A DNA stretch of 64,000 bases, taken from the NCBI GenBank assembly GCA_963665325.3, contig CAXXWS020000003.1, forward strand, positions 256,001-320,000, read 5' to 3'. Within the stretch, counting starts at the first letter, position 1. Each line of letters begins with the position of its first letter. Of the stretch, positions 22,693 to 64,000 are shown in pieces. Source of the stretch: Alphaproteobacteria bacterium (GTDB lineage: Bacteria; Pseudomonadota; Alphaproteobacteria; Bin95). The notes under the pieces are model-generated. The model saw only the letters and a list, made by a program, of their open reading frames with translations. It did no database searches and had not been told where the DNA came from. Made by a program: the position numbers and the translations under genes.

Positions 22693-22728
22693 GAATGTTT
22701 GCCGGGGTTTCGTGAAAAATTGCTGCAT

Positions 22729-22783
22729 ATTCACATTTTGTTTAATTTCGAGCTTGACATAAGGGAAAATAAACCGATATAAG
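22729..22783 (+). promoter_or_regulatory. Sigma70-like promoter with upstream LexA-box-like motif (copy A)
   Basis: ATTC-N7-GTTT (22729-22743), 10 nt, TTGACA (22754-22759), TATAAG (22778-22783). Confidence 0.5.
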
Positions 22784-23000
22784 ACCTGCAGAAGGGGCAT
22801 CCGGAGCCGCTTCTCCGGCGCCGCGCGGCCGGCGGCGCCATTTTCGAAAACCCCTGAGAAACTGACGGGAGACGTGCGCCCTCTGCCTCGCGCGCGCAAT
22901 CAGGTGCGCGAACCGCGCCGGCGCCAACGCGCGCCCGCGCCCGTGTGCGAAACGCGCGCGGCAAAGGGTCCGCCGCTCCCGGACCGGCAAGGAGACAGGA

Positions 23001-23222
23001 ATGACCGCAACCGACCCCCGCCCCGCACTCGCGGCGATGCCAGCCCGGAGCCGCCGCCCCCGGACGAGGCGTCGTGACACCCCCGGTGAGCCGGAGGCGG
23101 TGTCCGGCTACGACGGCAGCCGGGACACGCCCGAAATCAGGGCGTGGGACGAACGGCAGAAGCGCCGCAAGGAGGCCTCCAGCGCCCGCTACCTCGAGGC
23201 CGCCGGCCGGCGCGGAACATGA
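23001..23222 (+). pseudogene. Internally deleted homolog of the 33622-34185 ORF
   Basis: AGGAG RBS. Shares MTATDPRP, AVSxYDG, DGSRD and TPExRAWxERQxRR with the 187-aa copy; the EPPPPD segment survives out of frame. Confidence 0.6.
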
Positions 23223-23368
23223 CAAAACATGACATTCCGCAGCCGGAACATGACAAAACATTACATTCCATGACGTGTCGCGACGGGTCCGGCCGGCCCT
23301 CCGGTTCCGGTCCGCGAGCGGTGGTATAACGCCCGGCATGCGATACCGGCCGGGAAAGGAGTAGGCGC

Positions 23369-24157
23369 ATGCGCCCGACAGAACGCGAACAGGCGGATTT
23401 CGACCGCGACGGCGCAGTGCTGATGAAGGGGGTCGTGCCGGCCGAATGGCTGGGCGTGCTGGCGGAGGCTGTCGAGCGCGACATCGCGGAGCCGGGGCCC
23501 TATTTCAACGGATACCGGCCGGAAGCCGGGCGCTTCCACGGCAATCTGCGCATCTGGGAAACGCATGAGGGCTTCCGCGCCTTCTGCTGCGAGGGCCCGC
23601 TCCGCGAAGTGGCGGCGCGGTTCCTGGGAGCAAACCGTCTCAACCTCTTCTACGACCAGCTGTTCGTGAAGGAGCCGGGCACGCCGCAGCCGACGCGCTG
23701 GCACAACGACCAGCCCTACTGGCCCGTACGCGGCTGGCCGGTCATGTCGTTCTGGCTGCCGCTCGATCCCGTCACGCGCGAGAGCGGCGCGCTTTCCTTC
23801 GTCGCCGGCTCGCACCGCTGGGAGCGCTGGTTCCAGCCGGAGCCGTTCGCGAAGGGCGGCGCGGACTATGAGCGCGGCGAGAACTACGAGCCGATGCCGG
23901 ATATCGACGCCGGCGGCTACGACATCCTCTCCTGGGACATGGAGACCGGCGACGCGCTCGCCTTCCATGCCATGACGGTTCACGGCGCGGGCGGCAACCT
24001 GACTTCCGATACCCGCCGGCGCGGCTATGCGGTGCGCTATTGCGGCGAGGGCTGCACCTATTTCGCCGGCCCCGGTCCGAACAACGACCTGCGCAACCCG
24101 GCGCTCGCCGATGGCGCCCCGCTCGACAGCGCGCAGTTCCCCGCGGTCTGGCCGTGA
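23369..24157 (+). CDS. Phytanoyl-CoA dioxygenase family (PhyH)
   Basis: DQLFVKEPG, WHNDQPYW, FWLPLD, GSHRW, HGAGGN...RRR. Confidence 0.9.
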   Translation: MRPTEREQADFDRDGAVLMKGVVPAEWLGVLAEAVERDIAEPGPYFNGYRPEAGRFHGNLRIWETHEGFRAFCCEGPLREVAARFLGANRLNLFYDQLFVKEPGTPQPTRWHNDQPYWPVRGWPVMSFWLPLDPVTRESGALSFVAGSHRWERWFQPEPFAKGGADYERGENYEPMPDIDAGGYDILSWDMETGDALAFHAMTVHGAGGNLTSDTRRRGYAVRYCGEGCTYFAGPGPNNDLRNPALADGAPLDSAQFPAVWP

Positions 24158-24267
24158 AGCCGGCCTCGTTCGCGCACCCGATTAGCAGTTGACCCTGCTG
24201 CGTTTTCTTGGCTAGCCTTACGGCAGGGCACGGATTAGCCGCGGCCCGGTCGGAGGAGGAGTATGCA

Positions 24268-26652
24268 ATGCCCGACGGTATGTCTGGACAGGAGAGGTTT
24301 GAGAACGGGAGCAGCGTGCTCAAGAATGTCGTCTGCACAAGCTGCGACGGGTTCTGCCCGGTCGCGGCCAAGGTAGAGGACGGGCGCGTGGTCAAGGTCA
24401 CGACGCGCGATCACCCGATCCTGAAGGACGTGCTCTGCATGAAGGGCGCCTATGCGCCGAAGCATTTTGCGCATCCCGACCGCATCCTCTATCCGCTGAA
24501 ACGCGTGGGCGCGCGCGGCGACGGCCAGTGGCAGCAGGTGACCTGGGACGAGGCGATGGACGACATCGCCGAGCGCCTCCAGGCGGTGATCGACCGCTAC
24601 GGGCCGGAAGCCTTCGCGGTCGGCCAGAGCGGCGCGACCGGCCTTTCCGACCACGGCCTCAGCCGGCGTTTCATGAATCATCTCGGCTCGCCCAACTGGA
24701 TCAGCGGCGTGGCCTATTGCGCCGGCAACACGGCGGCGGTGAACCGCTATGTCTATGGCTGGTTCCCGCGCGGCGACATCCTGAATTCCAAGTGCATCGT
24801 GCTGCTCGGCCACGACCCGCGCCGGCACAGCTGGACGATGGAATACAAGGCAATCCGCATGGCGCAGGCCGCGGGCGCCAAGCTCATCGTGGCCGATCCG
24901 CGCCGCAGCGGGAACGCCGAGCGCGCCGACATCTGGCTGCCGCTCCGCGCCGGCACCGACGCGGCCCTGCTGCTTGGCTGGCTCCGGGTCATCGTCGATG
25001 AGGAGCTCTACGACAAGGAGTTCGTACGCGACTGGACGGTCGGCTTCGACAAGCTGGTCGAGCGCCTCCGGGAATACCCCGTCGAGCGCGTCGCGGAGAT
25101 CACCGGCCTCACAGAAGAGCAGATCCGCGACTCGGCCCGGATGTATGCGACGACGAGTCCCGCCTGCATCCCCTGGTCGCCGATCACCGACCAGCAGGTG
25201 TCCAGCACCTCGGCGATCCGGCTGCAGGCCATGCTGCGGGCGCTCACCGGCAATGTCGATGTCAAGGGCGGCGATGTGTTCATCGGCCCGAGCCCGGTCA
25301 TGCGCTCCGACTCCGAGATCGAGATGGTGCACCTGCTGTCCGAGGAGCAGAAGGCCAAGCAGCTCGGCGCGGACCGGCACCCGGTCTTCACCTTCCGCGG
25401 CATGAAGGCCTTCGAGGACGCCACCGAGCGCGTCTGGGGCCAGCGCTACGTCAATCTCGTCAACGGCTGCTACATGGCCAACCCCATGGCGGTGTTCAAG
25501 GCCATGGAGGACAGCGACCCCTACCCGGTCAGGGCCTTCTTCATGATGGCCAACAACGCGCTGATGGCCTACGCCAACGCCGACCGGGTGTACCGGGCGA
25601 TGATGAAGCAGGACCTGCTCGTCTCCTTCGAGCACAACATGACGCCGAGCGCGCAGATCTCGGACTACATACTGCCGGGCGATTCCTGGCTGGAGCGGCC
25701 CTCCATGCAGGCCGGCATCAGCGAACAGTCGATGGAGCCGCCGGGCGAGTGCCGCAATGTCACCTATTTCTGGCACATGCTCGCCAAGCGCATGGGGCTC
25801 GGCGACGCCTTCCCCTGGACGAACCAGGAGGACTTCATCAACTACCGGCTGGAGCCAGGCGGGGCGACCTGGAACGACGTCGTCGCGAGCGGGCGGCCGC
25901 CCAACCTGCATAAAGGCCAGGCGCCCGATCCCGAGGAGAAGCAGTATCTCAGGAACGGCTTCGCCACGCCGTCCGGCAAGGTGGAGTTCTATTCCGAGGT
26001 GCTCGAAAATCTCGGCTTCGATCCGCTGCCCTATTACCGCGAGGCGGCGGAACCCTCAGAGCGCTTCCCGATGGCGTTGTTCATAGGCTGGCCCGAGGAC
26101 GAGTATTTCCGCTCCGGCCACCGCCATATCCCGGAGCTTCGCCGGCGCGCGGCGGATCCGATGTTCATGATCGCACCTGCGGACATGGAGCGGCTCGGCT
26201 TCGAGGAAGGCGCCTGGGCCCGGCTCGAGACCTCGACCGGGGCCATGGTGGCCCGCGTCTATGGGCGCTCCTCCATGCCGAAGGGCCTGGTGCGGGTGCC
26301 GCATGGCTGGTGGAAGCCGGAATCGCGGCCGGGGCTGGAGAACATGTCCGGCATGTGGGCCTTCAATGACGGGCAGGTGACGCCCGACGACGAGGAGGCG
26401 CTGATCGACCGCGAACAGGGCATCCCGCACATGAAGGGCATGCCGTGCTCGCTGGTCGCGCTGACGGCGGACGAGGTGGCGGCGCTCGAGGCCGAATTCG
26501 GCCCGACCAACGAACTGCCGCGCGGCCCGGAAGGCAAGGTGCTGCAGTCCACCTCCAAGCCCGACGATTTCATGTTCGACGACATCACCGGCGACGGCGT
26601 GGAGTTCGAGGCGATATCCCTCTCCATCTACGGCCGCACCTCGGCGATGTAA
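24268..26652 (+). CDS. Mo/W-bisPGD oxidoreductase, acetylene hydratase-like
   Basis: GGAGGAGG RBS; CTSCDGFC...CMK [4Fe-4S] motif, RRFMNHLGSPNWISGVAYCAGNTA, TPSGKVEF; no Tat signal. Confidence 0.85.
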   Translation: MPDGMSGQERFENGSSVLKNVVCTSCDGFCPVAAKVEDGRVVKVTTRDHPILKDVLCMKGAYAPKHFAHPDRILYPLKRVGARGDGQWQQVTWDEAMDDIAERLQAVIDRYGPEAFAVGQSGATGLSDHGLSRRFMNHLGSPNWISGVAYCAGNTAAVNRYVYGWFPRGDILNSKCIVLLGHDPRRHSWTMEYKAIRMAQAAGAKLIVADPRRSGNAERADIWLPLRAGTDAALLLGWLRVIVDEELYDKEFVRDWTVGFDKLVERLREYPVERVAEITGLTEEQIRDSARMYATTSPACIPWSPITDQQVSSTSAIRLQAMLRALTGNVDVKGGDVFIGPSPVMRSDSEIEMVHLLSEEQKAKQLGADRHPVFTFRGMKAFEDATERVWGQRYVNLVNGCYMANPMAVFKAMEDSDPYPVRAFFMMANNALMAYANADRVYRAMMKQDLLVSFEHNMTPSAQISDYILPGDSWLERPSMQAGISEQSMEPPGECRNVTYFWHMLAKRMGLGDAFPWTNQEDFINYRLEPGGATWNDVVASGRPPNLHKGQAPDPEEKQYLRNGFATPSGKVEFYSEVLENLGFDPLPYYREAAEPSERFPMALFIGWPEDEYFRSGHRHIPELRRRAADPMFMIAPADMERLGFEEGAWARLETSTGAMVARVYGRSSMPKGLVRVPHGWWKPESRPGLENMSGMWAFNDGQVTPDDEEALIDREQGIPHMKGMPCSLVALTADEVAALEAEFGPTNELPRGPEGKVLQSTSKPDDFMFDDITGDGVEFEAISLSIYGRTSAM

Positions 26653-26660
26653 CGCAAGGC

Positions 26661-26704
26661 ACCGCCCCCTTCCCCGGCTCCGGCCGGCGGGAAGGGGCGG
26701 CGGT
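26661..26704 (+). terminator. GC-rich stem-loop after the molybdoenzyme gene
   Basis: CCGCCCCCTTCCCCGGC-TCCG-GCCGGCGGGAAGGGGCGG imperfect inverted repeat; no clear U-tract. Confidence 0.4.
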
Positions 26705-26739
26705 TCCACCTGCAGCGGAAATGCTGTAGGGGACGGCGC

Positions 26740-27615
26740 ATGTCTCTTCGGGGGGATGCGCCGTTGTCTTATGAGACGCTGACAGCCGGGGTCGAGGACG
26801 GCCTGCTGACGCTGACGCTCAACCGGCCGGACCGGCTGAACGCCGTCAATGCGGCCATGATCGGCGAATATATTGACGCGCTGGACGCGGCCGACCGCGA
26901 CGACGGCGTGCGCGCAGTCATCGTCACCGGCGCAGGCCGCGCCTTCTGCGCCGGCGCGGACCTCTCGGGCGGGCCGGGCACCTTCGACCGCACCGCGCCG
27001 GAGCCGGGCGCGCGCCACCGCGACGGCGGCGGCCTGGTGGCGCTCCGGCTGTTCGACATGAAGAAGCCGGTGATCGCGGCAGTGAACGGCCCGGCAGTCG
27101 GCTTCGGCGCGACCCAGATCCTGCCGATGGACATGCGCCTCGCCTCCACGGAAGCCCGTTTCGGCTTCGTCTTCTCCCGGCGCGGGGTGGTGATGGAAGC
27201 AGCGTCCTCCTGGTTCCTGCCACGCCTGGTGGGCATGCAGCGGGCGATGGAGTGGGTGGCGACGGGCCGCATCTTCTCCGCCGAGGAAGCGCTCGAAGGC
27301 GGGCTGGTGCGCTCGCTGCACGCGCCGGAGGAGCTGTTGCCGGCGGCGCGCGCGCTCGGCCGCGAGATCGCGGACAACGCCTCGCCGATGTCGGTCGCAC
27401 TCTGCCGGCAGATGATGTGGAAGATGCTGGGCGAGGACCACCCGATGGCCGCGCACCGGATCGACTCCCTCGGCATGGCCTACACCGGCGCCTCGGCGGA
27501 TGCGCGCGAGGGCGTCGCCTCCTTCCTGGAGAAGCGCCCGCCCGCCTTCGGCTCCACGCCCGGCAAGGCGATGCCGGCCTTCTACCCCTGGTGGGACGAG
27601 CCCCGCCACGGCTGA
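26740..27615 (+). CDS. Enoyl-CoA hydratase/isomerase (crotonase) family
   Basis: TLNRPDRLNA, GAGRAFCAGADL, KPVIAAVNGPAVG, DAREGVASFLEKRPP. Confidence 0.92.
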   Translation: MSLRGDAPLSYETLTAGVEDGLLTLTLNRPDRLNAVNAAMIGEYIDALDAADRDDGVRAVIVTGAGRAFCAGADLSGGPGTFDRTAPEPGARHRDGGGLVALRLFDMKKPVIAAVNGPAVGFGATQILPMDMRLASTEARFGFVFSRRGVVMEAASSWFLPRLVGMQRAMEWVATGRIFSAEEALEGGLVRSLHAPEELLPAARALGREIADNASPMSVALCRQMMWKMLGEDHPMAAHRIDSLGMAYTGASADAREGVASFLEKRPPAFGSTPGKAMPAFYPWWDEPRHG

Positions 27616-27655
27616 GGTACGGGGCCCGCCCCGAATCCCGCGCCCGGAGAGCATC

Positions 27656-29167
27656 ATGGCCCGCGACCTGCCGAACATCCTGCTGATCCAGGCCGACCAG
27701 CTCAAACCGCAGGTGCTGCCCGGCTATGGCGGCCCGGCGGCGACGCCGCATATCGAGCGGCTGTGCGGGGAAGGCGTGGTGTTCGAGAACGCCTATTGCA
27801 ACTTCCCGCTCTGCGCGCCGTCGCGATTCTCGATGCTGGCCGGAATGCTGCCGTCGCGAGTGCGGGCCTTCGACAACGCCGCGGAATTCGCTGCCGCCAC
27901 GCCCACCATGGCGCACTATCTGCGGCTCGCCGGTTACCGCACGGCGCTCGCCGGCAAGCAGCATTTCGTCGGGCCGGACATGCTGCACGGCTTCCACGAA
28001 CGCCTCCTGCCGGAGCTCTATCCGACCGACTTCCACTGGACGCCGGACTGGGACGAGACCCGCATGGAGTCGAACAACGATTCGAGCGGCGTCATCAAGT
28101 CCGGCATTTGCACGCACAGCATGCAGATGGACCATGACGAGGCGGTGCTCTCCCGGGCGGCGGCGTGGCTGCTGGACGTTTCGGACCGGCAGCCCTTCTT
28201 CCTGGCGGTCTCCTTCACCCATCCCCACGAGCCCTATTTCGCGCGCCGCGAACACTGGGAGCGTTACCGCCACGAGGACATCCCGATGCCGGCGACGTCG
28301 CTGCTGCCCGAGTCCGAGCGCGACCTCCACAGCCGGCGCATGCTCGCCCATCACGGCCTGCTCGAAGGGGACATTACGGACGCGCACGTGCGGACTGCCC
28401 GCCATGCTTACCTCGCCAATTGCTCCTGGCTAGACGACATGGTCGGGACGCTGCTGAAGTCCTTGGAGGCGACCGGCGCCTCGGACAACACGGTCGTCCT
28501 CTTCACCTCGGACCATGGCGACATGCTCGGAGAGCGGGGCCTCTGGTTCAAGAAGCACTTCTTCGACCACGCGGCGCGGGTGCCGCTCATCCTCCACGCG
28601 CCCCGGCGGTTCCCCGCCGCGCGCCGGCCGGAACCCGTCTCGCTGGTGGACCTGCTGCCGACGCTTTGCGGCCTGGCGGAGATCGACCTCGCGGAACGCG
28701 CCCCCCGCCCGCCCGACGGCGCCAGCCTGTTGCCGCTCTGCGAGGGTGCGGCCGAGAGCGGGGAGAGGCCGGTATTCGCGGAGATGACTTCCGAGGGAGT
28801 GCCCTCGCCGATGTTCATGGTCCGCCACGGCCGCTTCAAGCTCATGACCGGGGGCGGCGCGCCCGACCTCCTCTTCGACCTTGAGGCCGACCCCGAAGAA
28901 CGGAACGATCTCGCCGCCGATCCGGACAGCGCGGAGTTGCTCGCCGCGCTTCGCCGCCTCACGGAAGAGACCTGGGACGCGGCGGCGCTGGAGGCGGAGG
29001 TCTGCGCCAGCCAGCGCGAGCGCCGACTGGTCCAGGCCGCGCACGGAAACGGCCCCGCGCCGGTGTGGGATGCGCTCGAAACCGATCCCGTGCGCGCGTC
29101 CTGCCTGCGCGCGCCCGACGACTACAATGACTGGGCGTGGCGCGGAATCGAGCCCTCGGCTCCCTGA
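27656..29167 (+). CDS. betC: Choline-sulfatase-like sulfatase
   Basis: PNILLIQADQL, CAPSR signature, GKQHFVGPD, YPTDFHWTPDW, SDHGDMLGERGLWFK. Confidence 0.8.
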   Translation: MARDLPNILLIQADQLKPQVLPGYGGPAATPHIERLCGEGVVFENAYCNFPLCAPSRFSMLAGMLPSRVRAFDNAAEFAAATPTMAHYLRLAGYRTALAGKQHFVGPDMLHGFHERLLPELYPTDFHWTPDWDETRMESNNDSSGVIKSGICTHSMQMDHDEAVLSRAAAWLLDVSDRQPFFLAVSFTHPHEPYFARREHWERYRHEDIPMPATSLLPESERDLHSRRMLAHHGLLEGDITDAHVRTARHAYLANCSWLDDMVGTLLKSLEATGASDNTVVLFTSDHGDMLGERGLWFKKHFFDHAARVPLILHAPRRFPAARRPEPVSLVDLLPTLCGLAEIDLAERAPRPPDGASLLPLCEGAAESGERPVFAEMTSEGVPSPMFMVRHGRFKLMTGGGAPDLLFDLEADPEERNDLAADPDSAELLAALRRLTEETWDAAALEAEVCASQRERRLVQAAHGNGPAPVWDALETDPVRASCLRAPDDYNDWAWRGIEPSAP

Positions 29168-29179
29168 GCGTTTCGACCC

Positions 29180-30025
29180 TTACGCCTCCGCGAATTCGAG
29201 CGGTATGCCGCAGGCGTCGGCAGGAGCGATGCGAATGCAGCCGGGCGCCTCGGAGGCGGGTGCAATGCCCCCCCGGCGGAGCGCCTCTTTCGCAGCCTCG
29301 ACGGAGGCGACCTCGATCCTGAGCCCCAGATAGAAGGGCCGCGCGGGCAGCGGGTCGGGCAGCGGCCCGTAGGGGCCGGCGCTGTCTGCCGCATCTGCCG
29401 GTGTCGCCAGATAGACATGGCCCCGCCCGATATCGAGCGCGCCGCCTGCCGCCGGGCGGCCGAGCAGCCGCGCCCAAGGCCCGGCTACTGCCTCAACATC
29501 GTCCACGACGGCGGCGGCGGCGGCGAGATTGCGCGCGCCGTTCCCGTGGTTCATCGAGCCTGCCGGGCGCATCAGCTCGGGCGTCTTGTGGCCGCAGAGG
29601 AAAGTGCCGAGGTTCCCCGTCTCCGCCTCCGGGATCTGGAGGTTGCGGAACCGCACGATGGCGTCGGGCCGGTCGGTCAGCGGCCGGGCGAGGTCGTCCG
29701 GCCCGGTCGGTGAGAAGCCCTCAGCCTCGATGTCGGCGCGGGCGGCGTCGGCGTCCGGCGTGCCGAGCGCGATCTTCACCAGCCCCTCGCCGCGCGCCTC
29801 CAGGAATTCGCCGAGCCCGAGCGTGTCGCGGTGTTCGGGCTCGTTGATGCCGAGCAGCTCCAGATAGCTGTCGGCGAACATGATGCAGTGGTTCGCCGTC
29901 GCCTTGCCGACATGGTTGCCGAGCGGGGCTGCGGTGAAGCCGAGGCGCTCGAACTGCGCACGCGCGGCGTCGAGGTCGCGGACGCCGATAATTGCATGGT
30001 CGATCCCCCGGATCGCATCGGTCAT
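29180..30025 (-). CDS. VOC/glyoxalase-like protein
   Basis: Start reassigned to 30025 (AGGAG RBS). GIDHAIIGVRDLDAA, TANHCIMF, YLELLG. Confidence 0.8.
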   Translation of the reverse strand: MTDAIRGIDHAIIGVRDLDAARAQFERLGFTAAPLGNHVGKATANHCIMFADSYLELLGINEPEHRDTLGLGEFLEARGEGLVKIALGTPDADAARADIEAEGFSPTGPDDLARPLTDRPDAIVRFRNLQIPEAETGNLGTFLCGHKTPELMRPAGSMNHGNGARNLAAAAAVVDDVEAVAGPWARLLGRPAAGGALDIGRGHVYLATPADAADSAGPYGPLPDPLPARPFYLGLRIEVASVEAAKEALRRGGIAPASEAPGCIRIAPADACGIPLEFAEA

Positions 30026-30048
30026 TGGGCTGGTCTCCTTGGTTCGGA

Positions 30049-33382: not shown

Positions 33383-33621
33383 CTCGGCGGAATGTAGGCT
33401 TGGCATTGTTTCAGAGGCCAAGGTTTCTTGCGCCTCCCATATGGGAGGAATAAACAGGAAAAGTGGCCATCGCCCGGCTCGTTCCGGCCAATTGTCATGA
33501 GGATCCGGTCGGGCGGAGACGCGAGACCCATGGCTCGGGCGGTCCGGCGGCGGACCGGAGATGCCGCGCGCCCCGGAACCCCCGGCGAAATGTCATGTTT
33601 TGTCATGGGGCGGGGTTGCGG

Positions 33622-34185
33622 TCATGGCTTGTTGCCCGCCGGGGCCCCGCTTCTTGCGCGGTCGAGACAACGGGCGATGGAGTCCTCCGTGCGTCGCCGC
33701 TGCCGCTCGCGCCATGCCCTGTATTCGGGCGTCTTCAGGTCGCCGACGAATCTCCGTCCGCTGACATTGCATTCGAGCAGCCTGTCGTCGCGGCTCCCGT
33801 CCAGCGGGACCGGCCCGACCCGGCGCTCCGGGTCTTCCAGCCATGCCTCGAACCCGGGCGTCTCCTGGCTGCCGACCCAAGCCTCGCCGCAATAGTGGAA
33901 CTCGTATTCGCCGCCGTCATAGTCGGACACCGCCAGGGGCGGCGGCTCCCACGGCTCCTCTTCGGGTTCCGGGGCCGGCTCCGGCTCGGGCATATGCGCG
34001 GCGCTCCAGTCGAGCACGGCGAGGAGTTCGCGCAGATGAGCGAGCCGTGCGCGCCCGGTGCAGTGGCATTCGGCGCGGGCGCGGTCGTCGGGCGGCGGCG
34101 GTTCGGCACCCATGTCCTGGGCATAGGTTGCTGCGAGGGCTTCGGCGGCCGGCACCAGCCTGGGGCGGGGATCGGTTGCGGTCAT
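33622..34185 (-). CDS. Hypothetical protein carried by element copy B
   Basis: 187-aa ORF with AGGAG RBS, Pro/Glu linker and two internal VGxxxTPxxxAW repeats; homologous remnant at 23001-23222. Confidence 0.6.
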   Translation of the reverse strand: MTATDPRPRLVPAAEALAATYAQDMGAEPPPPDDRARAECHCTGRARLAHLRELLAVLDWSAAHMPEPEPAPEPEEEPWEPPPLAVSDYDGGEYEFHYCGEAWVGSQETPGFEAWLEDPERRVGPVPLDGSRDDRLLECNVSGRRFVGDLKTPEYRAWRERQRRRTEDSIARCLDRARSGAPAGNKP

Positions 34186-34385
34186 CTCGTCTCCTAGCCG
34201 GTCCGGGAGCGGCGGGTCCCTTTACCGCGCGCGGTTTGCGCGCGGGTGCGGGCGCCTGTCGGCGCCGGCGCGGTTCGTGCGCCTGATTGCGCGCGCGAGC
34301 CGCAGGGCGCACCTCTCCCGTCTGTATTGCGGGTATTTTTTCGGATCGGAGGGAAGTGGCCCCGGACGCCTCTTCCCTCAAGGAC

Positions 34386-34437
34386 AGTCTAGCACAGTTT
34401 CTCTCAGGTCAAGCCCTATTAGGAACAAAAAGCGAAT
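34386..34437 (-). promoter_or_regulatory. Sigma70-like promoter with LexA-box-like motif (copy B)
   Basis: GAAC-AAAAAGC-GAAT at 34423-34437 (alphaproteobacterial box GTTC-N7-GTTC, one mismatch), 10 nt before TTGACC; candidate -10 TAGACT is only 15 nt from the -35. Confidence 0.55.
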
Positions 34438-34492
34438 AATTTCGAATTTTCCGGGATTCGGCCGGACCGCAAATTGCTCTACTCTGGCGCCC

Positions 34493-56136: not shown

Positions 56137-57621
56137 ATGACGGCATGGGATGTCGCGGTCGTCGGCTGCGGCAACGCAGCGCTTTGCGCGGCGATTTCGG
56201 CGCGCGAGCAGGGCGCCCGCGTGATCGTGCTCGAAAAGGCCACGGAGGAGGAGCGGGGTGGCAATTCCTTCTTCACCGCCGGCGGCTTCCGCTTCGTCCA
56301 TGACGGGCTGGAGGATGTCAGCACCGATGTGCTGACCGACCTCTCGGAAGCGGAGAAGGCGCGCATCGAGCTGCCCACCCATGACCGGCAGTTCTTCTAC
56401 GACACGATGATGAAGGTGACGCGCCACCAGGCCGAGGAGGACCTTGCCTGGACGCTGATCGACGATTCCCGCCCGGCCATGGCGTGGCTGCGCGGGAACG
56501 GCGTGCGCTTCGTGCCGATGTTCGGCCGCCAGTCCTACGAGGTGGACGGCAAGCAGGTCTTCTACGGCGGCGTGAATATCGAGGCCGTCGGCGGCGGGGC
56601 GGGGCTGGTGGACTTCCTGCTGCGCCGGGCCGAGGCGGTCGGCATCGAGATCCGCTACGAAACCGGCGCGACCGGCCTCGTCCAGGACGATACCGGGCGC
56701 ATCACCGGGCTCCGGCTGCGCACGCCGGAGGGCTACGAGGTGCTGGAGACCGGCTCGGTGGTGCTCGCCTGCGGGGGCTTCGAGGCCAATCCGGAGATGC
56801 GGGCGCGCTATCTCGGCCACGGCTGGGACCTCTGCCGCGTGCGCGGCACTCGCCACAATACCGGCGACGGCATCCGCATGGCGCTGGAGGCCGGCGCGCG
56901 GCCGCACGGCAACTGGTCCGGCTGCCATTCGGTCGGCTGGGACATCTCAGCCCCGCCTTACGGGGACCGCGCCGTCGGCGACAATTTCCAGAAGCACAGC
57001 TATCCGCTCGGCATCATGGTGAACCTCAGTGGCGAGCGCTTCGTCGATGAGGGCGAGGACTACCGCAACCTCACCTATGTGCGCTTCGGCCGCGCCATCA
57101 TGGGGCAGCCGCACCGCTGGTGCGCGCAGATCTTCGACGCGAAGACCGTCCACATGCTGCGCGACGAATACCGCATCCGCGAGGTCACCAAGGTGGAGGC
57201 GGACTCGATCGAGGAACTGGCGGCCGGGCTGGAGATCGACCCGGCGGCGCTTGGCCGCACGATCGGCGAATACAACGCCGCCTGCCGGTCCTCGAACGCC
57301 TACAATCCCGCCGTGCTGGACGGAGTCTCGACCGAGGGGCTGAGCCCGGACAAGACCAACTGGGCGCTGCCCCTCGACAGCCCGCCCTATGTCGCCTTCG
57401 TCACCACCACGGGCATCACCTTCACCTTCGGCGGCCTGCAGATCGACGACCGCAACCGCGTGCAGGACCTTTCCGGGCGCCCGATGGACGGGCTCTACGC
57501 CGCGGGCGAACTGGTGGGCGGCCTCTTCTTCGAGAACTATCCGGGCGGCTCGGGCCTCATGTCCGGCAGCGTGTTCGGCCGCCGCGCCGGCCGCTTCGCC
57601 GCGGAGTATGCCTGCGGGTAG
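56137..57621 (+). CDS. tcuA: TcuA-like FAD-dependent dehydrogenase
   Basis: VVGCGNAALCAA, RGGNS, GGFEAN, VRGT..NTGDG, GITFTFGGL, AAGELVGG, NYPGGSGL. Confidence 0.8.
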   Translation: MTAWDVAVVGCGNAALCAAISAREQGARVIVLEKATEEERGGNSFFTAGGFRFVHDGLEDVSTDVLTDLSEAEKARIELPTHDRQFFYDTMMKVTRHQAEEDLAWTLIDDSRPAMAWLRGNGVRFVPMFGRQSYEVDGKQVFYGGVNIEAVGGGAGLVDFLLRRAEAVGIEIRYETGATGLVQDDTGRITGLRLRTPEGYEVLETGSVVLACGGFEANPEMRARYLGHGWDLCRVRGTRHNTGDGIRMALEAGARPHGNWSGCHSVGWDISAPPYGDRAVGDNFQKHSYPLGIMVNLSGERFVDEGEDYRNLTYVRFGRAIMGQPHRWCAQIFDAKTVHMLRDEYRIREVTKVEADSIEELAAGLEIDPAALGRTIGEYNAACRSSNAYNPAVLDGVSTEGLSPDKTNWALPLDSPPYVAFVTTTGITFTFGGLQIDDRNRVQDLSGRPMDGLYAAGELVGGLFFENYPGGSGLMSGSVFGRRAGRFAAEYACG

Positions 57622-57625
57622 CGCC

Positions 57626-58888
57626 TTACGGCGTGGCGGCCACCGGCAGGGATTCGAGGCCGCGCAGCACGATGCTGGGGCGGAACTCCGCCGGCGGGCC
57701 CGCAAGGCGGATCGAGGAGAACCGCTCCAGCAGCACCTCGATGGCGATGCGCGCCTCCAGGCGGGCGAGCGGCGCGCCGATGCAGGCATGGATGCCGCGG
57801 CCGAACGAGATATGGCTGTTGCCCTCGCGCCCGACATCGAGTCCGTCCGGGTCCTCGAATTGCTCGGGGTCCCGGTTGGCGCCGCCGATTAGCACCACAA
57901 TGTCCTCGCCCCGCTTCACCGGGAAGCCGTTCACGTCGCAATCCTGCACGATGCGGCGCAGGTCCAGCTGCACGGGCGAATCGTAGCGGAGAAGCTCCTC
58001 CACCGCCGACGGGATGAGCGCGGGGTCGTCCCGGAGCCGCTGCAATTGCTCGGGATGGCGTAGCAGCGCGAGCATGCCGTTGCCGATCAGGTTGACGGTC
58101 GTCTCGTTGCCGGCGACCAGCAGCAGCCGCAGCAGGGCAATCATCTCGTCCTCGTCCAGCCGGTCGCCCTCTTCCTCGGCCTGGGCGAGCCCGCTCAGAA
58201 TGTCGTCCTTGGGGTCGGCGCGGCGTTCCCTGACGAGCGGCACGAAATAGGCGTTGAGATCCTCGCCGGCGAGAACGGCGTCCGCGCGTTCCTCGGCGCC
58301 GATCGTCGGCTCCAGGATGCGCGCCCGGCGGTCGGACCAGCTCCGGAACCGGGGCCGGTCTTCCACGGGCACACCGAGCATTTCCGCGATCACGATCACC
58401 GGCAGCGGCCTGGCAACGGCCTCCATGAGATCGAAGCCGGACAGGTCCTCGATCCCGTCCAGCAGCTCATGCATGAGGCTGCGGATATGGGGCTCCCGCG
58501 CATTCACCGCCCGCGGCGTGAACGCCTTGCTGACCAGTCCGCGCAGGCGGCGGTGGTCGGGCGGGTCCAGCGAAAGCAGGGACGGCGTGCCGGGGTCCGG
58601 AATAACCGTCCGCTTGCCCGGCCTCTTGGCCTTCCTGCCGTCGCTGGAGAAGCGCTGCCAGTCGCGAAGTATCTCGTCCACATCCGGGAAGCGGCTGAAT
58701 ATCCACGCATTCAGCAGCCGGCTACGGTGCGCCTGGCCCTTGTCGCGCAACGCCGCATAAGCGGGATAGGGGTTCTGCGTGTTCCGGCGCGCCACCGGGT
58801 TGTAGGCGCGGCCGCTCTCGAGGCGCTCGCGCATGAGCATCGCCTGCATCGCGGTCTTGCGGACCGCCTGCTTCAGGGATAGCGCCAT
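57626..58888 (-). CDS. Cytochrome P450
   Basis: DPPDHRRLR, AGNETT, EELLR (ExxR), heme motif FGRGIHACIG. Confidence 0.95.
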   Translation of the reverse strand: MALSLKQAVRKTAMQAMLMRERLESGRAYNPVARRNTQNPYPAYAALRDKGQAHRSRLLNAWIFSRFPDVDEILRDWQRFSSDGRKAKRPGKRTVIPDPGTPSLLSLDPPDHRRLRGLVSKAFTPRAVNAREPHIRSLMHELLDGIEDLSGFDLMEAVARPLPVIVIAEMLGVPVEDRPRFRSWSDRRARILEPTIGAEERADAVLAGEDLNAYFVPLVRERRADPKDDILSGLAQAEEEGDRLDEDEMIALLRLLLVAGNETTVNLIGNGMLALLRHPEQLQRLRDDPALIPSAVEELLRYDSPVQLDLRRIVQDCDVNGFPVKRGEDIVVLIGGANRDPEQFEDPDGLDVGREGNSHISFGRGIHACIGAPLARLEARIAIEVLLERFSSIRLAGPPAEFRPSIVLRGLESLPVAATP

Positions 58889-58954
58889 CACCGTCTCCCC
58901 TGCGTGGACGCAGTCCTTATTCCGCCCCGTTCTTACTCCCGGAGCGGCCCATTA

Positions 58955-59794
58955 TCAATGCGACATCAGCACGGGCACGGTCGTGTCGCGCAGCAGCGAT
59001 TCCGTCACGCCGCCGAAGGCCCATTCGCGCATTCTGGAATGCCCCCAGGCGCCGCTGACGATGAGGTCGATGCCGCGGTCGCCCACATGCGCCAGCACGA
59101 TGTCGGAGACCGATATTCCGTCGGCGACCGTGTTCGCGGCCTCGGCATTCACGCCATGGCGGGCAAGGTGCAATGCGATGTTGGCGCTCGGGATTTCGCC
59201 GTGGTCGCCGCCGGATCCCCGGTGCGGATTGACCGACAGCACGACCACCTTTTCCGCCCGGCGCAGCAGCGGCATGGCGTCGTTGACCGCCCTGGTCGCC
59301 TCGCGGCTCGCGTTCCAGCACACCAGCACATCCCGGCCCACCGGGTCGAAACGGCCGGAGTTCGGCACGACGAGGACGGGCCTGCCGCAGCTCATGGTCA
59401 GGTCTGCCGCCAGGTCCGGATAGGGGTAGAGGTCGGGCTCGGCCGCGCTGCCCTTGCCGACCACAACGAGGTCCGCATAGCGCGCATGCATCGCGGTAAC
59501 CCGGCCGACGGGCCCGGCCGCCATGCGCCATTCGGCATGCACTCCGGCCCTGTCCGCGATCTCCTGGAAGCGCTGGCGGGCGGCATCGCCCTCCCCGCGC
59601 ACTCTCTCTACCGCGGCTTCCAGCGCGCCGACCGGCATGCCTGCGGCCATCCAGGTCGGAATCGGCTGGTCGGGGGTAACGAAAACCCCGGTCAGATGGC
59701 CATCGTCCGGCCGGGCGAGTTCGGCGGCGATGCGGATGCGTTCGCCCGCGCGCTCGCTGCCATCCACATGCACGAGAATGTTCCTGAGTTCCAT
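58955..59794 (-). CDS. Universal stress protein (tandem Usp)
   Basis: ILVHVD, ARYADLVVVG, GRPVLVVP, WNASREA, GAWGHSR, VPVLMSH. Confidence 0.92.
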   Translation of the reverse strand: MELRNILVHVDGSERAGERIRIAAELARPDDGHLTGVFVTPDQPIPTWMAAGMPVGALEAAVERVRGEGDAARQRFQEIADRAGVHAEWRMAAGPVGRVTAMHARYADLVVVGKGSAAEPDLYPYPDLAADLTMSCGRPVLVVPNSGRFDPVGRDVLVCWNASREATRAVNDAMPLLRRAEKVVVLSVNPHRGSGGDHGEIPSANIALHLARHGVNAEAANTVADGISVSDIVLAHVGDRGIDLIVSGAWGHSRMREWAFGGVTESLLRDTTVPVLMSH

Positions 59795-59865
59795 CGCACC
59801 CCCTCCGGTTGCGAGCGGCAGCGACCGCTCCCTTCACCTCGATATGGTATGCCGGAGCGGCGTTT

Positions 59866-61002
59866 TTAAGCGCCGGGTATATCCCGCAGCATGGCGCGGG
59901 CGATCTGCTGCTGCTGGATCTGCGAGGTGCCTTCGAAGATGCGGAACAGCCGCGTGTCGCGGTAGAGGCGGGCGACGGCGTTCCCGGCCATATAGCCCTG
60001 CCCGCCGAGGATCTGGACCGCCTTGTCGGCGACCCGGCTCACCATTTCGGAGGCGAAATACTTGGCGCAGGCAATGTCCGCAAAGGGCAGCGGGCGCTGT
60101 TCGAACCGCCGGGCGCAGTCCAGCACCATCGCCTCGGCCGCATAGGTGTCGGCGCGCATGTCGGCGAGCATCGCCTGCACGAGCTGGTGCTCGCTGATGG
60201 CCTTGCCGAACTGGCGGCGCTCACGGGCATAGCGCACCGCCTCGACGACCAGCCGCTTCGCCTGCCCGACGCAGGTGGCGGCGACATGGGTGCGCGCATG
60301 GTTGATGCCGCGCAGCGCCGCCTTGAGCCCGAGCCCCTCCTGCCCCCCGACCAGCGCGTCCCCGGGCACCCGGCAGTCCTCCAGATAGACCTCCGAGACC
60401 CTGGACCCGCGGTGCCCCATCATCTCGACGGGCTCGCCCGCGCGAATGCCCGGCGTGCCGGCATCGACGGCGAAGGCCGAGACGCCGCCGGCGCCCGGCC
60501 CGCCCGTGCGCGCCATGACCAGGAACATGTCGGCGTCCGCCGCGTTGGTGATGTAGCGCTTGGTGCCGTTCAGCACATAGTCCGCGCCGTCGCGCACGGC
60601 CGTCGTCGCGAGGTTCGCCGCGTCGGAGCCGTAGTCGGGCTCGGTCAGCGAGAAGGCGCCGGTGCAGCGGCCTTCCGCCATGGCGGGCAGGTATTTCAGC
60701 TTCTGCGCCTCCGTGGCGAAGTCGAGGAGCGCCTGGCTGCAGAGCCCGATCGTGGTCGAGAAGCGCGCGCGGAACACGGCCGAGGCCCGGGTGAAGGCGA
60801 AGGTGAGCCGCACCTGCTGCTCCTGGCTGAGGCCGAGCCCTCCGTATTCCTCCGGGATCGAGATGGCGAAGAGGCGCATCTCGCAAATCCGCCGCACAAG
60901 GTCCTCGGGCACATGGCCCAGCTCTTCCACGCGTTCCTCGCTGGGAATCAGCTCCTCGCGCGTGAACGCCTCGACCTGGGCCAGATAAGCCTCGAAATCC
61001 AT
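59866..61002 (-). CDS. Acyl-CoA dehydrogenase family protein
   Basis: IPEEYGGLG, LTEPDYGSDA, NGTKRYITNA, RRQFGK, RIFEGTSQIQ. Confidence 0.92.
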   Translation of the reverse strand: MDFEAYLAQVEAFTREELIPSEERVEELGHVPEDLVRRICEMRLFAISIPEEYGGLGLSQEQQVRLTFAFTRASAVFRARFSTTIGLCSQALLDFATEAQKLKYLPAMAEGRCTGAFSLTEPDYGSDAANLATTAVRDGADYVLNGTKRYITNAADADMFLVMARTGGPGAGGVSAFAVDAGTPGIRAGEPVEMMGHRGSRVSEVYLEDCRVPGDALVGGQEGLGLKAALRGINHARTHVAATCVGQAKRLVVEAVRYARERRQFGKAISEHQLVQAMLADMRADTYAAEAMVLDCARRFEQRPLPFADIACAKYFASEMVSRVADKAVQILGGQGYMAGNAVARLYRDTRLFRIFEGTSQIQQQQIARAMLRDIPGA

Positions 61003-61167
61003 GCCGTTACCCAAAGTCGTCGCCCCCCGCACACCCCGGAAGGCGTCATGATATGTCATGTTTTGTCATGAGGCCCGCCGGAAATGTCATGTTTGGAGAT
61101 TACAAAGATGACTTGGCATTTTCTACCGGACTCCCTATATTCCAAGGTGTTGAAGGGGAGAGCAGTC

Positions 61168-62145
61168 ATGGCGAAGAGCGCACCCGGAAAGGCCCACCGC
61201 GAAGGACTCACCATCGTCGAGTTGATGGATATGTTCCCGACCGAGGAAGCCGCGTCGGACTGGTTCGAGTCGGTGATTTGGCCGGACGGTCGGCACTGTC
61301 CGAAATGCGGTTGTGCGGAGACGCGCGAGGTTCCGAACGCGAAACCGATGCCTTACTGGTGCAAGGACTGTCGATCTTACTTCTCGGTGAAGACCGGAAC
61401 CGCCATGCAGCGGTCGAAAATCCCGCTCCGCAAGTGGGCAATCGCCATCTATCTCTGCCTTACTTCGCTCAAGTCGGTTTCGTCGATGAAGCTGCAACGC
61501 GACATCGGAGTTTCGCAGCCGACCGCATGGTTCATGCTTCACCGCATCCGGCAGGCATGGGCGGTTGACGACGACGACCAGTTTGACGGCCCTGTAGAGG
61601 TCGATGAGAGTTACTTCGGCGGTCGCCAAGCGAACATGCCGAAGGCAAAGCGCAAGACGCTCGCGGGCGGTGGCACGGCCCATATGACGGCAGTTAGCGG
61701 CGCGAAGGATCGCGACAGCAACGAAGTCCGGGCGGAAGTCATAACCGATACGACCAAGCCGACCTTGCAGGGTATTGTGCGCGAGCATGTCGAGCCCGGC
61801 GCGGCCGTCTATACCGACGAGCACCGCAGCTATGTCGGACTCGATGCGGATTTTGACCATGGAACGGTCAATCATCGCGTTGGCGAGTATGTGGACGGCA
61901 TGATCCACACCAACGGCATGGTGAGCTTCTGGGCCATGCTCAAGCGGGCACACAAGGGCACCTTCCACAAGATCAGCCCGAAACATCTTGAGCGTTATGT
62001 CGATGACTTTGCGGGCAAGCATAATCACTGCGAATCAGGCACCCTTGCCCAAATGCGGGATACCGTCGCCCGGCTCGTCGGCCGCCGGCTTCTCTACCGC
62101 GACCTTATCGCGGACAACGGGCTTTCGTCGGGTTCCGGGGCGTAG
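61168..62145 (+). CDS. IS1595 family transposase
   Basis: Zn ribbon CPKCG...CKDC, HTH (TAWFMLHRIR), VEVDESYFGG, YTDEHRSY, HTNGMVSFW, HLERYVDDF. Confidence 0.95.
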   Translation: MAKSAPGKAHREGLTIVELMDMFPTEEAASDWFESVIWPDGRHCPKCGCAETREVPNAKPMPYWCKDCRSYFSVKTGTAMQRSKIPLRKWAIAIYLCLTSLKSVSSMKLQRDIGVSQPTAWFMLHRIRQAWAVDDDDQFDGPVEVDESYFGGRQANMPKAKRKTLAGGGTAHMTAVSGAKDRDSNEVRAEVITDTTKPTLQGIVREHVEPGAAVYTDEHRSYVGLDADFDHGTVNHRVGEYVDGMIHTNGMVSFWAMLKRAHKGTFHKISPKHLERYVDDFAGKHNHCESGTLAQMRDTVARLVGRRLLYRDLIADNGLSSGSGA

Positions 62146-62241
62146 CGGCTCCGTCCTACGAAATAGCGCCTTCGCCAGCGTCTCCGGCGTAGCGCCCACC
62201 AAGTCGCGGACCGGGTCCAGTATCGGAACACCTTTCGTCAT
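62035..62241 (-). CDS. Small hypothetical protein antisense-overlapping the transposase 3' end
   Basis: GGAGG RBS upstream of ATG 62241; MTKGVPILDPVRDLVGATPETLAKALFRR. Confidence 0.4.
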   Translation of the reverse strand: MTKGVPILDPVRDLVGATPETLAKALFRRTEPLRPGTRRKPVVRDKVAVEKPAADEPGDGIPHLGKGA

Positions 62242-62462
62242 TTTCAGCCTCCGTTGACTCTCTGCGTTGATTCGGACGACCATCCTTCTTTCACCAATTC
62301 AAGCGCCCCGCTCTGTCGGGTCGCCTGCTGAATACAACAGCCTGACCCGGCAAGGGGGTTGCTCCCCGCGCTTGGCGAATAGGCGGGACTCTCCATTCGC
62401 TTGGATTGGTGCAACGGCCCGACGCCAGCCGGCGGCCGGGAACGAGCGGAAGGGCGATCCCG

Positions 62463-62948
62463 ATGAAGAAGCTCGTTGCGGCCTGCGCCGCAGCCATCAC
62501 CATTTATTCGGCACAGGGCCAAGCCCAGACGATCTCCAAGGACGAATATCGGGACAAGGTCCTCGTCCTGTTCGAGGAGTTCCTGCAAATGAAGACGGAT
62601 GGCGTCTTCCTGGACCAAGCGACGATCAAGGCGCTCGGACGAAACTTCAAATTCCCGAACGCCATCCGAGGCAACAATCCCCCCGGCGGGTGGTTTGCCC
62701 GCCCACCTGGTAGCGATTGGGTCAAGCGCGTCGAGGCCCTCGATGACACCGGTCACAAGTTCGTTTGCTTCGACATTCCGGCGCTGCCCAGCGAGTCGGG
62801 GGTCTGCGGTTTCGACTTGGTGTCGCTCCACACCGGTATTCTCGATCAAGGAGCGGTCAGCTTTCTCGATGCGCTTGCAGCGAAGTTCTGGCTCGCCACC
62901 ATCTGCCACCGGACCCCGGCAGCGTGCGAGCGTTACATCGACGACTAA
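62463..62948 (+). CDS. Exported hypothetical protein (IS passenger)
   Basis: Sec signal MKKLVAACAAAITIYSAQGQA; four Cys in the mature part. Confidence 0.7.
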   Translation: MKKLVAACAAAITIYSAQGQAQTISKDEYRDKVLVLFEEFLQMKTDGVFLDQATIKALGRNFKFPNAIRGNNPPGGWFARPPGSDWVKRVEALDDTGHKFVCFDIPALPSESGVCGFDLVSLHTGILDQGAVSFLDALAAKFWLATICHRTPAACERYIDD

Positions 62949-63004
62949 CGCGCCGACATGTTCACCAAGCTCAATGCGGCCATCGACTGCGTGGACAAGC
63001 AGCA

Positions 63005-63487
63005 TTAGCTGCTACCCGAGCGGAGGAAGGGCGGGAGTTCTCGGCCCGCCGCCTTCGCGTATTGGACCAAGGCGGCCTTGGTGAATTGATCGTTCGCCGG
63101 GTCGGCGCCGAGCAAGAACAGCATTGCGTGGTAGGGATCACCGCTCCGGTGTTCCAGCTTCCGCTGCTTTACCGCCAGCCGTAGACGGGCCAACTCTTCC
63201 TGCACGACCGGCCGTTGCAACGAGGACTCGGTTGGCGGCAGGCCATGCCACATGCAGGCGGCGTATTTGAGCGGTAGAACATTGAATTCCTGCCAGTCCA
63301 TCGTGGCAGCCGACTGCCGTTTCCCTGAACGCAATTTGAGCCACGTCGCCCGTATTTCGTCTCGATAGACGTACGGCAGGGCTATGCCACTGATTACGGT
63401 GACGGCGACCCAAGCCCAGAGCGGAAACAGGGCAACACTCACGGATTCTGCTCCGAGAATGAAGACTGCTGGAAGCCACCGGCGCAT
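63005..63487 (-). CDS. Membrane-anchored hypothetical protein (IS passenger)
   Basis: 160-aa ORF, hydrophobic N-terminus (SVALFPLWAWVAVTVISGIALPYVY) followed by a soluble domain. Confidence 0.55.
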   Translation of the reverse strand: MRRWLPAVFILGAESVSVALFPLWAWVAVTVISGIALPYVYRDEIRATWLKLRSGKRQSAATMDWQEFNVLPLKYAACMWHGLPPTESSLQRPVVQEELARLRLAVKQRKLEHRSGDPYHAMLFLLGADPANDQFTKAALVQYAKAAGRELPPFLRSGSS

Positions 63488-64000
63488 CCCGTAACGCTGT
63501 CCGGATTCACGCCGTGCGTCAAGTCATCTTTGTAATCCCCTCATGTTTTGTCATGGTCCGCCGCGCCTCCCGTCCCGCCGCTGCCCGTCCGTATCCCGCA
63601 TGCCGTTCCTCCATCCTGTTTCGCTCCACTCCGTTCCCGCCGCCGCGCCGAACATTGCAGATGGCGGCGTTGACGCCGCCGCCGGCCCCTCCGTGCGGCG
63701 GACCCTGTTTCGCGCGTATCGCGCGCGGCCGGGCGCGCCCGTTAGCGCCGGCGCGGTTCGCGCGCCTGATTGCCCGCATGCGCCCGCACGCGCGAGACGG
63801 GCGCAGGGCGCACCCCTCCCCCTTGCTCCCTCGGGGCCTTTTCTCGCACCATCGCAACTCGAAGCGGCCTCCGGACAACCGCCTCCTCCCACTCCATCTA
63901 AGGCGCGGTGATGCAGATTTCAACTCTTTTCTAGGAATTAAGACAAATTAACACGAACAAACCATAATATCCAACCACGGCCGAGCGGCCGTTGAACCCG

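Follow-up and report, generated by a model that had tools for sequence, protein, structure and literature searches.

Six kinds of described system come closest to the repeats examined here: insertion sequences (IS) with their derivatives resembling miniature inverted-repeat transposable elements (MITEs), the SPP1/SF6 packaging module, terminase-pac modules of phage satellites and plasmids, putative mobile promoters, REP/REPIN sequences with their RAYT genes, and IS110 elements with a bridge RNA. We compare with them a cassette family found in a window of 64,000 nucleotides (the whole stretch of DNA analysed; positions 256,001 to 320,000 of contig CAXXWS020000003.1, assembly GCA_963665325.3, Alphaproteobacteria bacterium), where a sequence-only reading had pointed to three intergenic loci, A, B and C, as copies of an uncharacterised dispersed element. 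The genome that holds the window (G000; 5.58 Mb in 5 contigs, C1-C5, 67% GC) contains dozens of such units. Each is a compact, self-contained cassette between genes, roughly 0.45 to 1.5 kb long; the family is genus-specific and fits no described RNA or transposon family. Tentatively, we favour a phage-derived duplicative cassette family with miniature derivatives, in which an array of heptamers at the 3' end would be the binding site of a terminase-like protein.

With insertion sequences and their MITE-like derivatives the family shares a few gene-bearing members among many short copies that keep both ends, intergenic dispersal, sites filled in one species and empty in another, and copies at rearrangement breakpoints. 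It differs in that the cassettes lack terminal inverted repeats, target duplications and a transposase, their 5' end is a promoter with gradually fading similarity, and their paralogs are old (synonymous divergence, dS, 0.12-0.24) and under purifying selection. The SPP1/SF6 packaging module is comparable because the DNA-binding domain of one cargo protein is 42% identical to SF6 G1P, and because the SPP1 pac region, as described in PMC4737164, likewise brings together promoters, the start of the terminase gene and direct repeats, of which it holds three sets. Here, however, each chromosome has 5-12 gene copies plus dozens of gene-less ones, the gene has the repeats at its 3' end, the last 200 residues of the protein bear no relation to phage terminases, and G000 has no matching or adjacent large terminase. 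Terminase-pac modules of phage-inducible chromosomal islands and staphylococcal plasmids also place a small-terminase homolog beside a presumed recognition site on a non-phage replicon; those modules are single-copy within larger elements with integrases and replication genes, whereas the cassette is a stand-alone unit that is repeated many times.

Putative mobile promoters, as described in PMC3575422, are near-identical promoter regions upstream of unrelated genes in one genome, as are the units described here. The cassette is nevertheless much longer, it has a defined 3' end and brings cargo genes of its own, and one in three cassettes faces away from any drivable gene. High copy number, GC-rich palindromes, intergenic position and long persistence are shared with REP/REPIN sequences, as described in PMC8049555. 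Unlike these, the cassettes are ten times longer and carry promoters and genes, and there is no Y1/RAYT gene in G000. IS110 elements with a bridge RNA have neither terminal inverted repeats nor target-site duplications, and they carry a structured non-coding RNA region with a promoter at one end, before the open reading frame (ORF). The cassette resembles them in lacking both kinds of repeat and in having a promoter and leader ahead of the ORF, but it contains no DEDD recombinase, and the 8 IS110-type genes of G000 belong to separate elements, two of them inserted into family copies. For rolling-circle elements of the IS91/ISCR kind, the Y2 transposase profile PF04986 gave 0 matches, in a search whose control was positive in no genome.

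A cassette family restricted to one genus

The 29-nt core GCAATCAGGYGCRCGAACCGCGCCGGCGC, allowing up to 3 mismatches, matches G000 65 times (29 on C1, 17 on C3, 15 on C4, 4 on C5 and none on the 196-kb C2) as against 0 matches for the reversed-pattern control, and the double heptamer CATGACAAAACATGACAT, allowing up to 2 mismatches, matches 85 times as against 0 for its control; this pattern is far beyond chance. BLAST with all leaders returned 74 leader-like segments, so about 9 further, partial copies are present, and in two examples of these the core was lost by internal deletion. The family of three copies proposed from the window has thereby grown to 65 core-bearing copies and about 9 partial leader segments in one genome. 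The strict core recurs in 13 of 16 genus-mates, with 2-118 copies each, and in 0 of 24 genomes of other genera or families. A covariance model built from 117 leaders likewise detects the cassettes in 13/16, 0/10 and 0/10 genomes of the three genera of the taxonomic family. The cassette family is restricted to one uncultured alphaproteobacterial genus, a restriction that the sequence-only reading had missed. Public contigs with the core, among the 80 of 102 stretches listed, are all titled 'MAG: Alphaproteobacteria bacterium' (MAG, metagenome-assembled genome); the sequencing runs that hold the region include sponge metagenomes, and 72,556 plasmid records contain no relatives of the DNA.

As judged from an alignment of the 65 G000 copies and direct reading, nearly all copies have a common layout. 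The unit begins with an AT-richer stretch containing loosely conserved TTTGTTC and GAAATAATTCC words and a promoter-like motif (CTTGAC, about 15-16 nt, TG-N-TA..AT), the letters of which are kept in 70-90% of copies while the spacer varies. We take this motif to resemble the alphaproteobacterial housekeeping consensus; a strict sigma-70 scan did not call its versions at loci A and B. At the predicted 5' end of the RNA stands a GC hairpin, followed within the GC-rich leader of about 250 nt by the palindrome GCGCCGGCGC, an A-run and CCCC, by GGGAGA-N-GTGCGCCCT and a hairpin of variable length, by the invariant core, which holds GGCGCG-CGAAC-CGCGCC and a second GCGCCGGCGC, and finally by a variable GC stretch and GATACGCGCGAAACAGGGTCC. 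On the antisense strand the A-run and the CCCC...GGGG segment read as a terminator-like hairpin. The middle of the unit varies from 40 nt to more than 1 kb (61% purine, 10% T), and its 3' end consists of 2-6 CATGACA heptamers that recur every 10 bp, to which many copies add another cluster at a distance of 31 bp, a refinement of the terminal heptamer repeats that had been noted in the window. Direct reading shows that the 10-nt period places TGA and ATG in all three frames; because all ORFs end in such heptamers, the encoded proteins have invariant ...HD(K/R/I)(T/S) ends.

The five most similar long copies, which are of the terminase type described below, have an identity of 0.86-1.0 from the approximate -35 motif to the last heptamer, with one patch between leader and ORF where it dips to 0.52-0.59; identity is at background right after CATGACAYTTC and fades gradually upstream of the -35 motif. 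Whole units or their 3' parts are in places tandemly duplicated.

Some features recur around the units. A subset of G000 copies, such as those at C1:96981, C1:860407, C3:439620 and C4:114102, has TGGAGTGGGCCCC after the last heptamer, and others have a G-run and then TCCC 3' of the heptamers. A separate short palindromic repeat (CCGTCATGCCCGGA...TCCGGGCATGACGG) recurs beside copies, upstream of C1:289112, C3:374378 and C4:509973 and in L112. At C1:1437608-1438165 of the genus-mate G012, three heptamer arrays are spaced 266 bp apart, as if a short unit had been triplicated in tandem. Replichore polarity was considered and discarded, the arrays of G012 being of mixed strand (36 forward, 68 reverse, no two-block pattern) and the strand of G000 elements agreeing with the local sign of GC skew in 32 of 65 copies.

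Cargo genes and a phage-type DNA-binding domain

Most copies carry no gene and a minority hold an intact one. Copies with a long ORF, which the sequence-only reading had proposed to look for without seeing one, do exist: five G000 copies encode a protein of 326 amino acids (aa), and remnants of this ORF persist in two more. Residues 11-80 match Terminase_2 (Pfam E 2.2e-12) and a PHROG small terminase (E 4e-14). The AlphaFold model has a mean predicted local distance difference test score (pLDDT) of 58.5 and is confident only for a helix-turn-helix domain and some long helices; in Foldseek its closest structures belong to SF6/SPP1-like small terminases (3zqq, E 4e-3), and 4zc3, a DNA-binding domain, superposes on it with a template modelling (TM) score of 0.82, a root mean square deviation of 0.8 Å and 42% identity. 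The N-terminus is thus a helix-turn-helix DNA-binding domain of the SF6/SPP1 small-terminase type. For the C-terminal 240 residues, the best scores in the Protein Atlas were 0.87, with no family. The five paralogs, which adjoin different genes, are separated by the dS given above and have dN/dS ratios of 0.16-0.31, that is, the terminase-like genes are under purifying selection. A search with the protein found 356 relatives; of the 120 listed, two come with a source name, in both cases 'MAG: terminase small subunit [Alphaproteobacteria bacterium]'.

Of 17 genomes of the genus, 13 carry the terminase-like gene in more than one copy. Two genomes contrast in their contents: G009 has 45 cores (48 model matches), no terminase-like gene and only 7 triple heptamers, whereas G012 has 2 strict cores, at least 5 full-length terminase-like genes and 99 triple heptamers, the scarcity of strict cores being due to a plain hairpin that its cassettes carry instead of the core. 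This contrast suggests that the heptamers go with the terminase-like protein and that the core is a separable module.

A second type of cargo is a protein of about 190 aa, represented by the 187-aa ORF of locus B, with 126 relatives and no Pfam family. Its model (pLDDT 70) consists of helices and two beta-hairpin-helix repeats, and a fold search returned nothing at E <=0.001. A shared tail of the two cargo proteins was considered, but the similarity is not significant and the types are unrelated. Deletions within the ~190-aa type gave rise to locus A and to several other copies. The A ORF had been read as a deleted version of that in B, which holds as far as its derivation goes, with no residues in common beyond the first 11 and the last ~37. 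Some gene-less units, at least, are thus gene-bearing ones that were internally deleted with both ends kept, like transposon miniatures, and the description of the family as dispersed and mostly non-autonomous agrees with these gene-less and deleted forms. One copy holds an isochorismatase-family gene. With a Terminase_2-domain protein, a Pfam-less protein and this one isochorismatase as their cargo, full-length members contain no cognate transposase, and none was found inside any family element, as had been reported for the window. The small ORFs of gene-less copies (MEERHAG..., MPKT...) were rejected as genes; their frame shifts between copies, conservation is therefore at the nucleic-acid level, and they are probably non-coding.

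Site turnover and the loci of the window

Empty sites, which the sequence-only reading had suggested seeking in relatives, were found. At the position of locus A in G013 and G016, the upstream gene is joined directly to the PhyH gene, and both the element and an ORF with an ABM (antibiotic biosynthesis monooxygenase) domain, which lies upstream of locus A at window positions 22333-22692, are missing. Conversely, seven copies in other genomes occupy six sites at which neighbouring genes of G000 are separated by no more than a short spacer. For about 13 further copies elsewhere the left and right flanks, as we read them, map to different G000 regions or replicons, and these units therefore mark synteny breaks. 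Four copies stand at orthologous filled sites: one of them, L147, is nearly identical to C4:979818 across the element with flanks that are 89% identical, and another, L165, belongs to a different subfamily at the same orthologous site. Private variants are common to many loci within one genome. The family thus turns over, with filled and empty sites, synteny breakpoints and genome-specific variants, and recombination between copies clearly happens. Rather than three copies at fixed orthologous positions, which would have spoken against mobility, there are 65 in G000, and their sites vary between species.

Other mobile DNA is found in and next to the copies. An island of ~40 kb (C1:777185-817140; 63.8% GC; L080, L227), with a tyrosine integrase and flanked by the repeat ACACGCGATAC, has inserted into the leader of a family copy; leader segments are also abutted by a second, identical copy of the integrase and by a partial one with 84% identity (C4:13055-14483 and C5:192404-193149), and a second island end is at C3:1325264. 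Adjacency of integrase and leader holds for 3 of 3 cases in G000, against a chance expectation of 0.65, and 3 of 10 integrase loci in other genomes have a leader nearby. Two identical IS110-family (DEDD) elements, C1:1706889-1708356 and C1:1919235-1920702, lie in or directly after the 3' part of the copies C1:1708614 and C1:1918817, which suggests that this IS110-family element targets the family sequence. L127, a terminase-type copy on a public MAG contig, is flanked by a diverged duplication of ~145 bp of the end of the neighbouring gene, 83-85% identical to the empty site of G000; nothing like it is seen at G000 copies. G000 also has 41 tyrosine-recombinase-like matches of at least 200 aa, many of them in tandem pairs, trios and a quartet (for example at C1:615395-619994 and C3:1061903-1065342), which we take to resemble recombinase-in-trio elements.

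In the window itself, the ordered architecture claimed for the three loci was recovered by direct reading and alignment, with all listed motifs in the same order at A, B and C. Locus A, on the plus strand, opens with an AT-rich upstream stretch and promoter-like motif (22712-22789; TTGACA 22754-22759, TATAAG 22778-22783). Its GC-rich leader (22790-23000; fold z = -1.23, no covariation found) contains the 5' hairpin (22790-22816), GGGAGACGTGCGCCCT (22867-22882), the invariant 29-nt core (22896-22924), the CGCGCG hairpin (22943-22961) and AGGGTCCGCCGC (22965-22976). The 73-aa ORF that derives by deletion from the ~190-aa cargo family follows at 23001-23222, and the 3' heptamer arrays at 23218-23275 form two clusters (23218-23234, with CATGACA at 23218 and 23228, and 23249-23275, with CATGACA at 23249, 23259 and 23269). 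Locus B, on the minus strand, consists of a promoter-like motif and 5' hairpin (34351-34445; CTTGAC 34413-34408, TG-C-TAGACT 34391-34386), a leader (34186-34350; core 34290-34262; fold z = -3.65, with 0/200 shuffles as good), the 187-aa cargo gene (33622-34185) and 3' heptamers (33590-33626), the last comprising CATGACAAAACATGACAT at 33607-33590 and a solitary CATGAC at the stop codon of the ORF.

Locus C, also on the minus strand, had been delimited as 61045-63975. It is a family copy, and its great length is due entirely to an IS1595-family element of 2446 bp inside its heptamer array, an insertion that had gone unnoticed. The 5' part (63541-63975) comprises the promoter-like region, the leader with its core (63773-63745), a short variable stretch and the first heptamers (63556-63541), which are cut at 63541; the remaining heptamer array is the 3' part (61044-61094, read 61094-61044). 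Between them, the insertion sequence (61095-63540), itself no part of the family, has inverted ends GGGGATTACAAAGATGACTTG and an 8-bp duplication AAACATGA. Its transposase (61084-62145, plus strand) matches DDE_Tnp_IS1595 (Pfam E 1e-38), and two more ORFs, 62406-62948 (plus) and 63005-63487 (minus), have no Pfam match. The genes 3' of loci A, B and C encode PhyH, a beta-lactamase-fold hydrolase and an acyl-CoA dehydrogenase, respectively.

Origin and role of the cassettes

The explanation that we favour, though it may well prove wrong, is that the ancestor of the family was a phage module for the initiation of packaging, made up of promoter, leader, small-terminase gene and direct repeats, and that the cassette multiplies within genomes as a duplicative element. 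A few full-length copies would make the terminase-like protein, which would bind the phased heptamer array of all copies in trans, perhaps together with the leader palindromes; miniatures would keep the cis ends, and promoter activity would be kept since each copy, or its lineage, must presumably be transcribed.

A number of observations weigh against this origin and mode of spread. None of 3 elements tested has a terminal inverted repeat, only internal GC palindromes being present, and the G000 copies with heptamer arrays gave a single flank-to-flank direct repeat, of 12 nt and at chance level, instead of target-site duplications; the sequence-only reading had been right on both points. The Y1 (HUH) transposase PF01797, expected for IS200/IS605 derivatives and REP/RAYT, has 0 matches in G000 (control positive in 6 of 14 genomes). 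Comparison of empty and filled sites yields no clean borders because intergenic DNA is too diverged between species. Phage genomes match only residues ~7-122 of the 326-aa protein, 0 of 57 phage matches covering at least 80% of it, and its model is helical and disordered, with no enzyme or catalytic fold. With paralogs at dS 0.12-0.24, no recent burst is visible, and gene conversion could mimic lineage-specific expansion. Profile searches of G000 found no matching large terminase, Terminase_1 and Terminase_3 being absent; the only large terminase found is that of a Mu-like prophage with its own small subunit. The link between heptamers and protein comes from two contrasting genomes, and the fragmented assemblies G010 and G015 have many heptamers and only fragments of the terminase-like gene. 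The SF6 DNA-binding domain, moreover, is reported to bind DNA with little specificity (PMC4737164).

The Mu-like prophage region spans C1:468000-487500 and contains a Terminase_6N match (C1:484011-484640) and a portal-sized ORF; an upstream ORF is presumably a Mu-type small terminase.

Two other explanations compete with this one, and we consider each of them unlikely. According to one, the units are mobile promoter or insulator modules that give the downstream gene a strong promoter, a leader and a three-frame stop, and that the host keeps for the expression of its neighbour. The promoter hexamers are indeed conserved above their spacer, the units fill the whole intergenic space, the heptamers supply each of the three frames with ATGA, in which a start and a stop codon overlap, and groups of reused promoters have been described (PMC3575422). 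In 43 of 63 copies (p = 0.005) the gene downstream has the orientation of the unit, usually starting ~20-150 nt past the last heptamer, and in 45 of 61 (p = 0.0003) so does the gene upstream, an orientation bias that suggests promoter use and fits an active outward promoter selected against when firing into genes. The earlier statement that the copies sit upstream of co-oriented host genes thus holds for A, B and C but fails genome-wide in the 20 of 63 copies that face a convergent gene, which also argue against a neighbour-serving module, as do the cargo genes of some units and the presence of the same gene without a unit in sister species. Nor is there a functional theme downstream: the 35 of 43 co-oriented ORFs that start within 450 nt and are long enough inside the fetched loci for a Pfam scan represent 50 Pfam families, as different as lysyl-tRNA synthetase and acyl-CoA dehydrogenases. 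A frame coupling of the array to the downstream gene was rejected, with 6, 7 and 8 cases per frame and no preference. The leader is at best partly a 5' leader of host genes, and the convergent copies, the unrelated downstream functions and the lack of covariation speak against a riboswitch or the leader of one regulon.

The other possibility, about which we are just as doubtful, is an expressed non-coding RNA family acting in trans or in cis, with the leader as scaffold, the purine-rich middle as variable part and the genes as secondary. In its favour, the 29-nt core and GATACGCGCGAAACAGGG are nearly invariant, the B leader folds far better than its shuffles, and stems in the 5' hairpin region are longer than in shuffles (6.4 vs 4.6 bp; stems of at least 7 bp in 42/118 copies vs 86/590 shuffles), with A-U to G-C swaps as judged by eye. 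Where only one side of a candidate stem has changed, the change is mostly C-to-U opposite G, a variant core retains its hairpin with a different loop, and the leader serves the integrase-bearing island as attachment site, a role that RNA genes often play for such islands. Transcription was assessed solely from Logan contigs of RNA libraries, in which uncovered parts are uninformative: the contigs are deepest over the A and B leaders (38-111 in run X19, vs 0-39 in other bins) and about 0.2-1.8 over the B ORF in the same run. This is no more than a hint of leader transcription; 18 RNA-library records fit two places, there are paralog-derived loose ends, and cross-mapping among many copies or DNA carry-over is possible, which tells against the favoured explanation as well.

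Covariation, in contrast, gives no backing to the structured leader that had been proposed. RNAalifold returned short invariant helices with 0 compensatory pairs, and no base pair exceeds a mean probability of 0.35 across 118 copies. At 15 hand-chosen pairs, 90.3% of cells pair vs 90.2% in shuffles, and compensatory change in candidate stems amounts to 1 cell, with 460 of 500 shuffles at least as good. Mutual information across 118 leaders yielded subfamily signal only, and a long-range closing helix of GUGCGCCCU with AGGGUCC, seen in the minimum-energy folds of A and B, is not supported: among 117 sequences none compensates and 10-31 break pairs. The A leader, moreover, folds only slightly better than shuffles, the region 3' of the leader no better than they do, the core is lost from G012 cassettes, and our reading of the copies found no sense-strand terminator after the heptamers. 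Rfam at gathering thresholds gave 0 matches over the whole window, in line with the earlier statement that no named RNA family fits, and at E up to 10 the only match at locus A was M23, outside the leader, at 15.1 bits (gathering 41.2). The leader as a structured RNA is unproven.

A more far-reaching version of the phage connection, which we regard as distinctly improbable, would make the copies chromosome-wide sites for the initiation of packaging that come with a recognition protein of their own. This protein, the terminase-like one, produced constitutively from 5-12 dispersed genes, would assemble on CATGACA arrays at 60-150 sites, gene-less copies being pac-only sites, and upon infection the large terminase of the phage would be recruited to host DNA; as a decoy this would ruin phage packaging, or it would provide built-in transduction of every part of the genome. 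A link to RcGTA-like gene transfer agents found no support in searches for an HK97-type capsid and a large terminase: the profiles PF05065 and PF03354 have 0 matches in G000, with a positive Caulobacter control. At the other extreme, the copies might be functionless debris of an old REP- or MITE-like repeat with no present role. Such decay would fit a family with mosaic structure, high turnover and internal deletions, some copies of which have taken up IS elements or an island, but purifying selection on the terminase-like genes, the near identity of L147 and C4:979818 between flanks that are 89% identical, the retention of -35 and -10 letters next to a variable spacer, and the persistence of 40-150 copies in 13 species make it very improbable.

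If the cassettes do derive from a phage packaging module, as we tentatively favour, they would represent a dispersed repeat built from such a module and not from a transposase gene, kept at 40-150 copies per genome across an uncultured genus that includes sponge-associated MAGs. The terminase-type helix-turn-helix ring and the 10-bp-phased heptamers would form a testable protein-DNA pair, and dozens of natural promoter-leader variants are on offer. For annotation, the family would explain why these MAGs have, outside prophages, dozens of genes called 'terminase small subunit' and of hypothetical ORFs, its terminase-bearing members having escaped the sequence-only reading. With copies that mark breaks in synteny and draw in IS elements and an integrase island, the family would show phage parts colonising and reshaping bacterial chromosomes in a new way.

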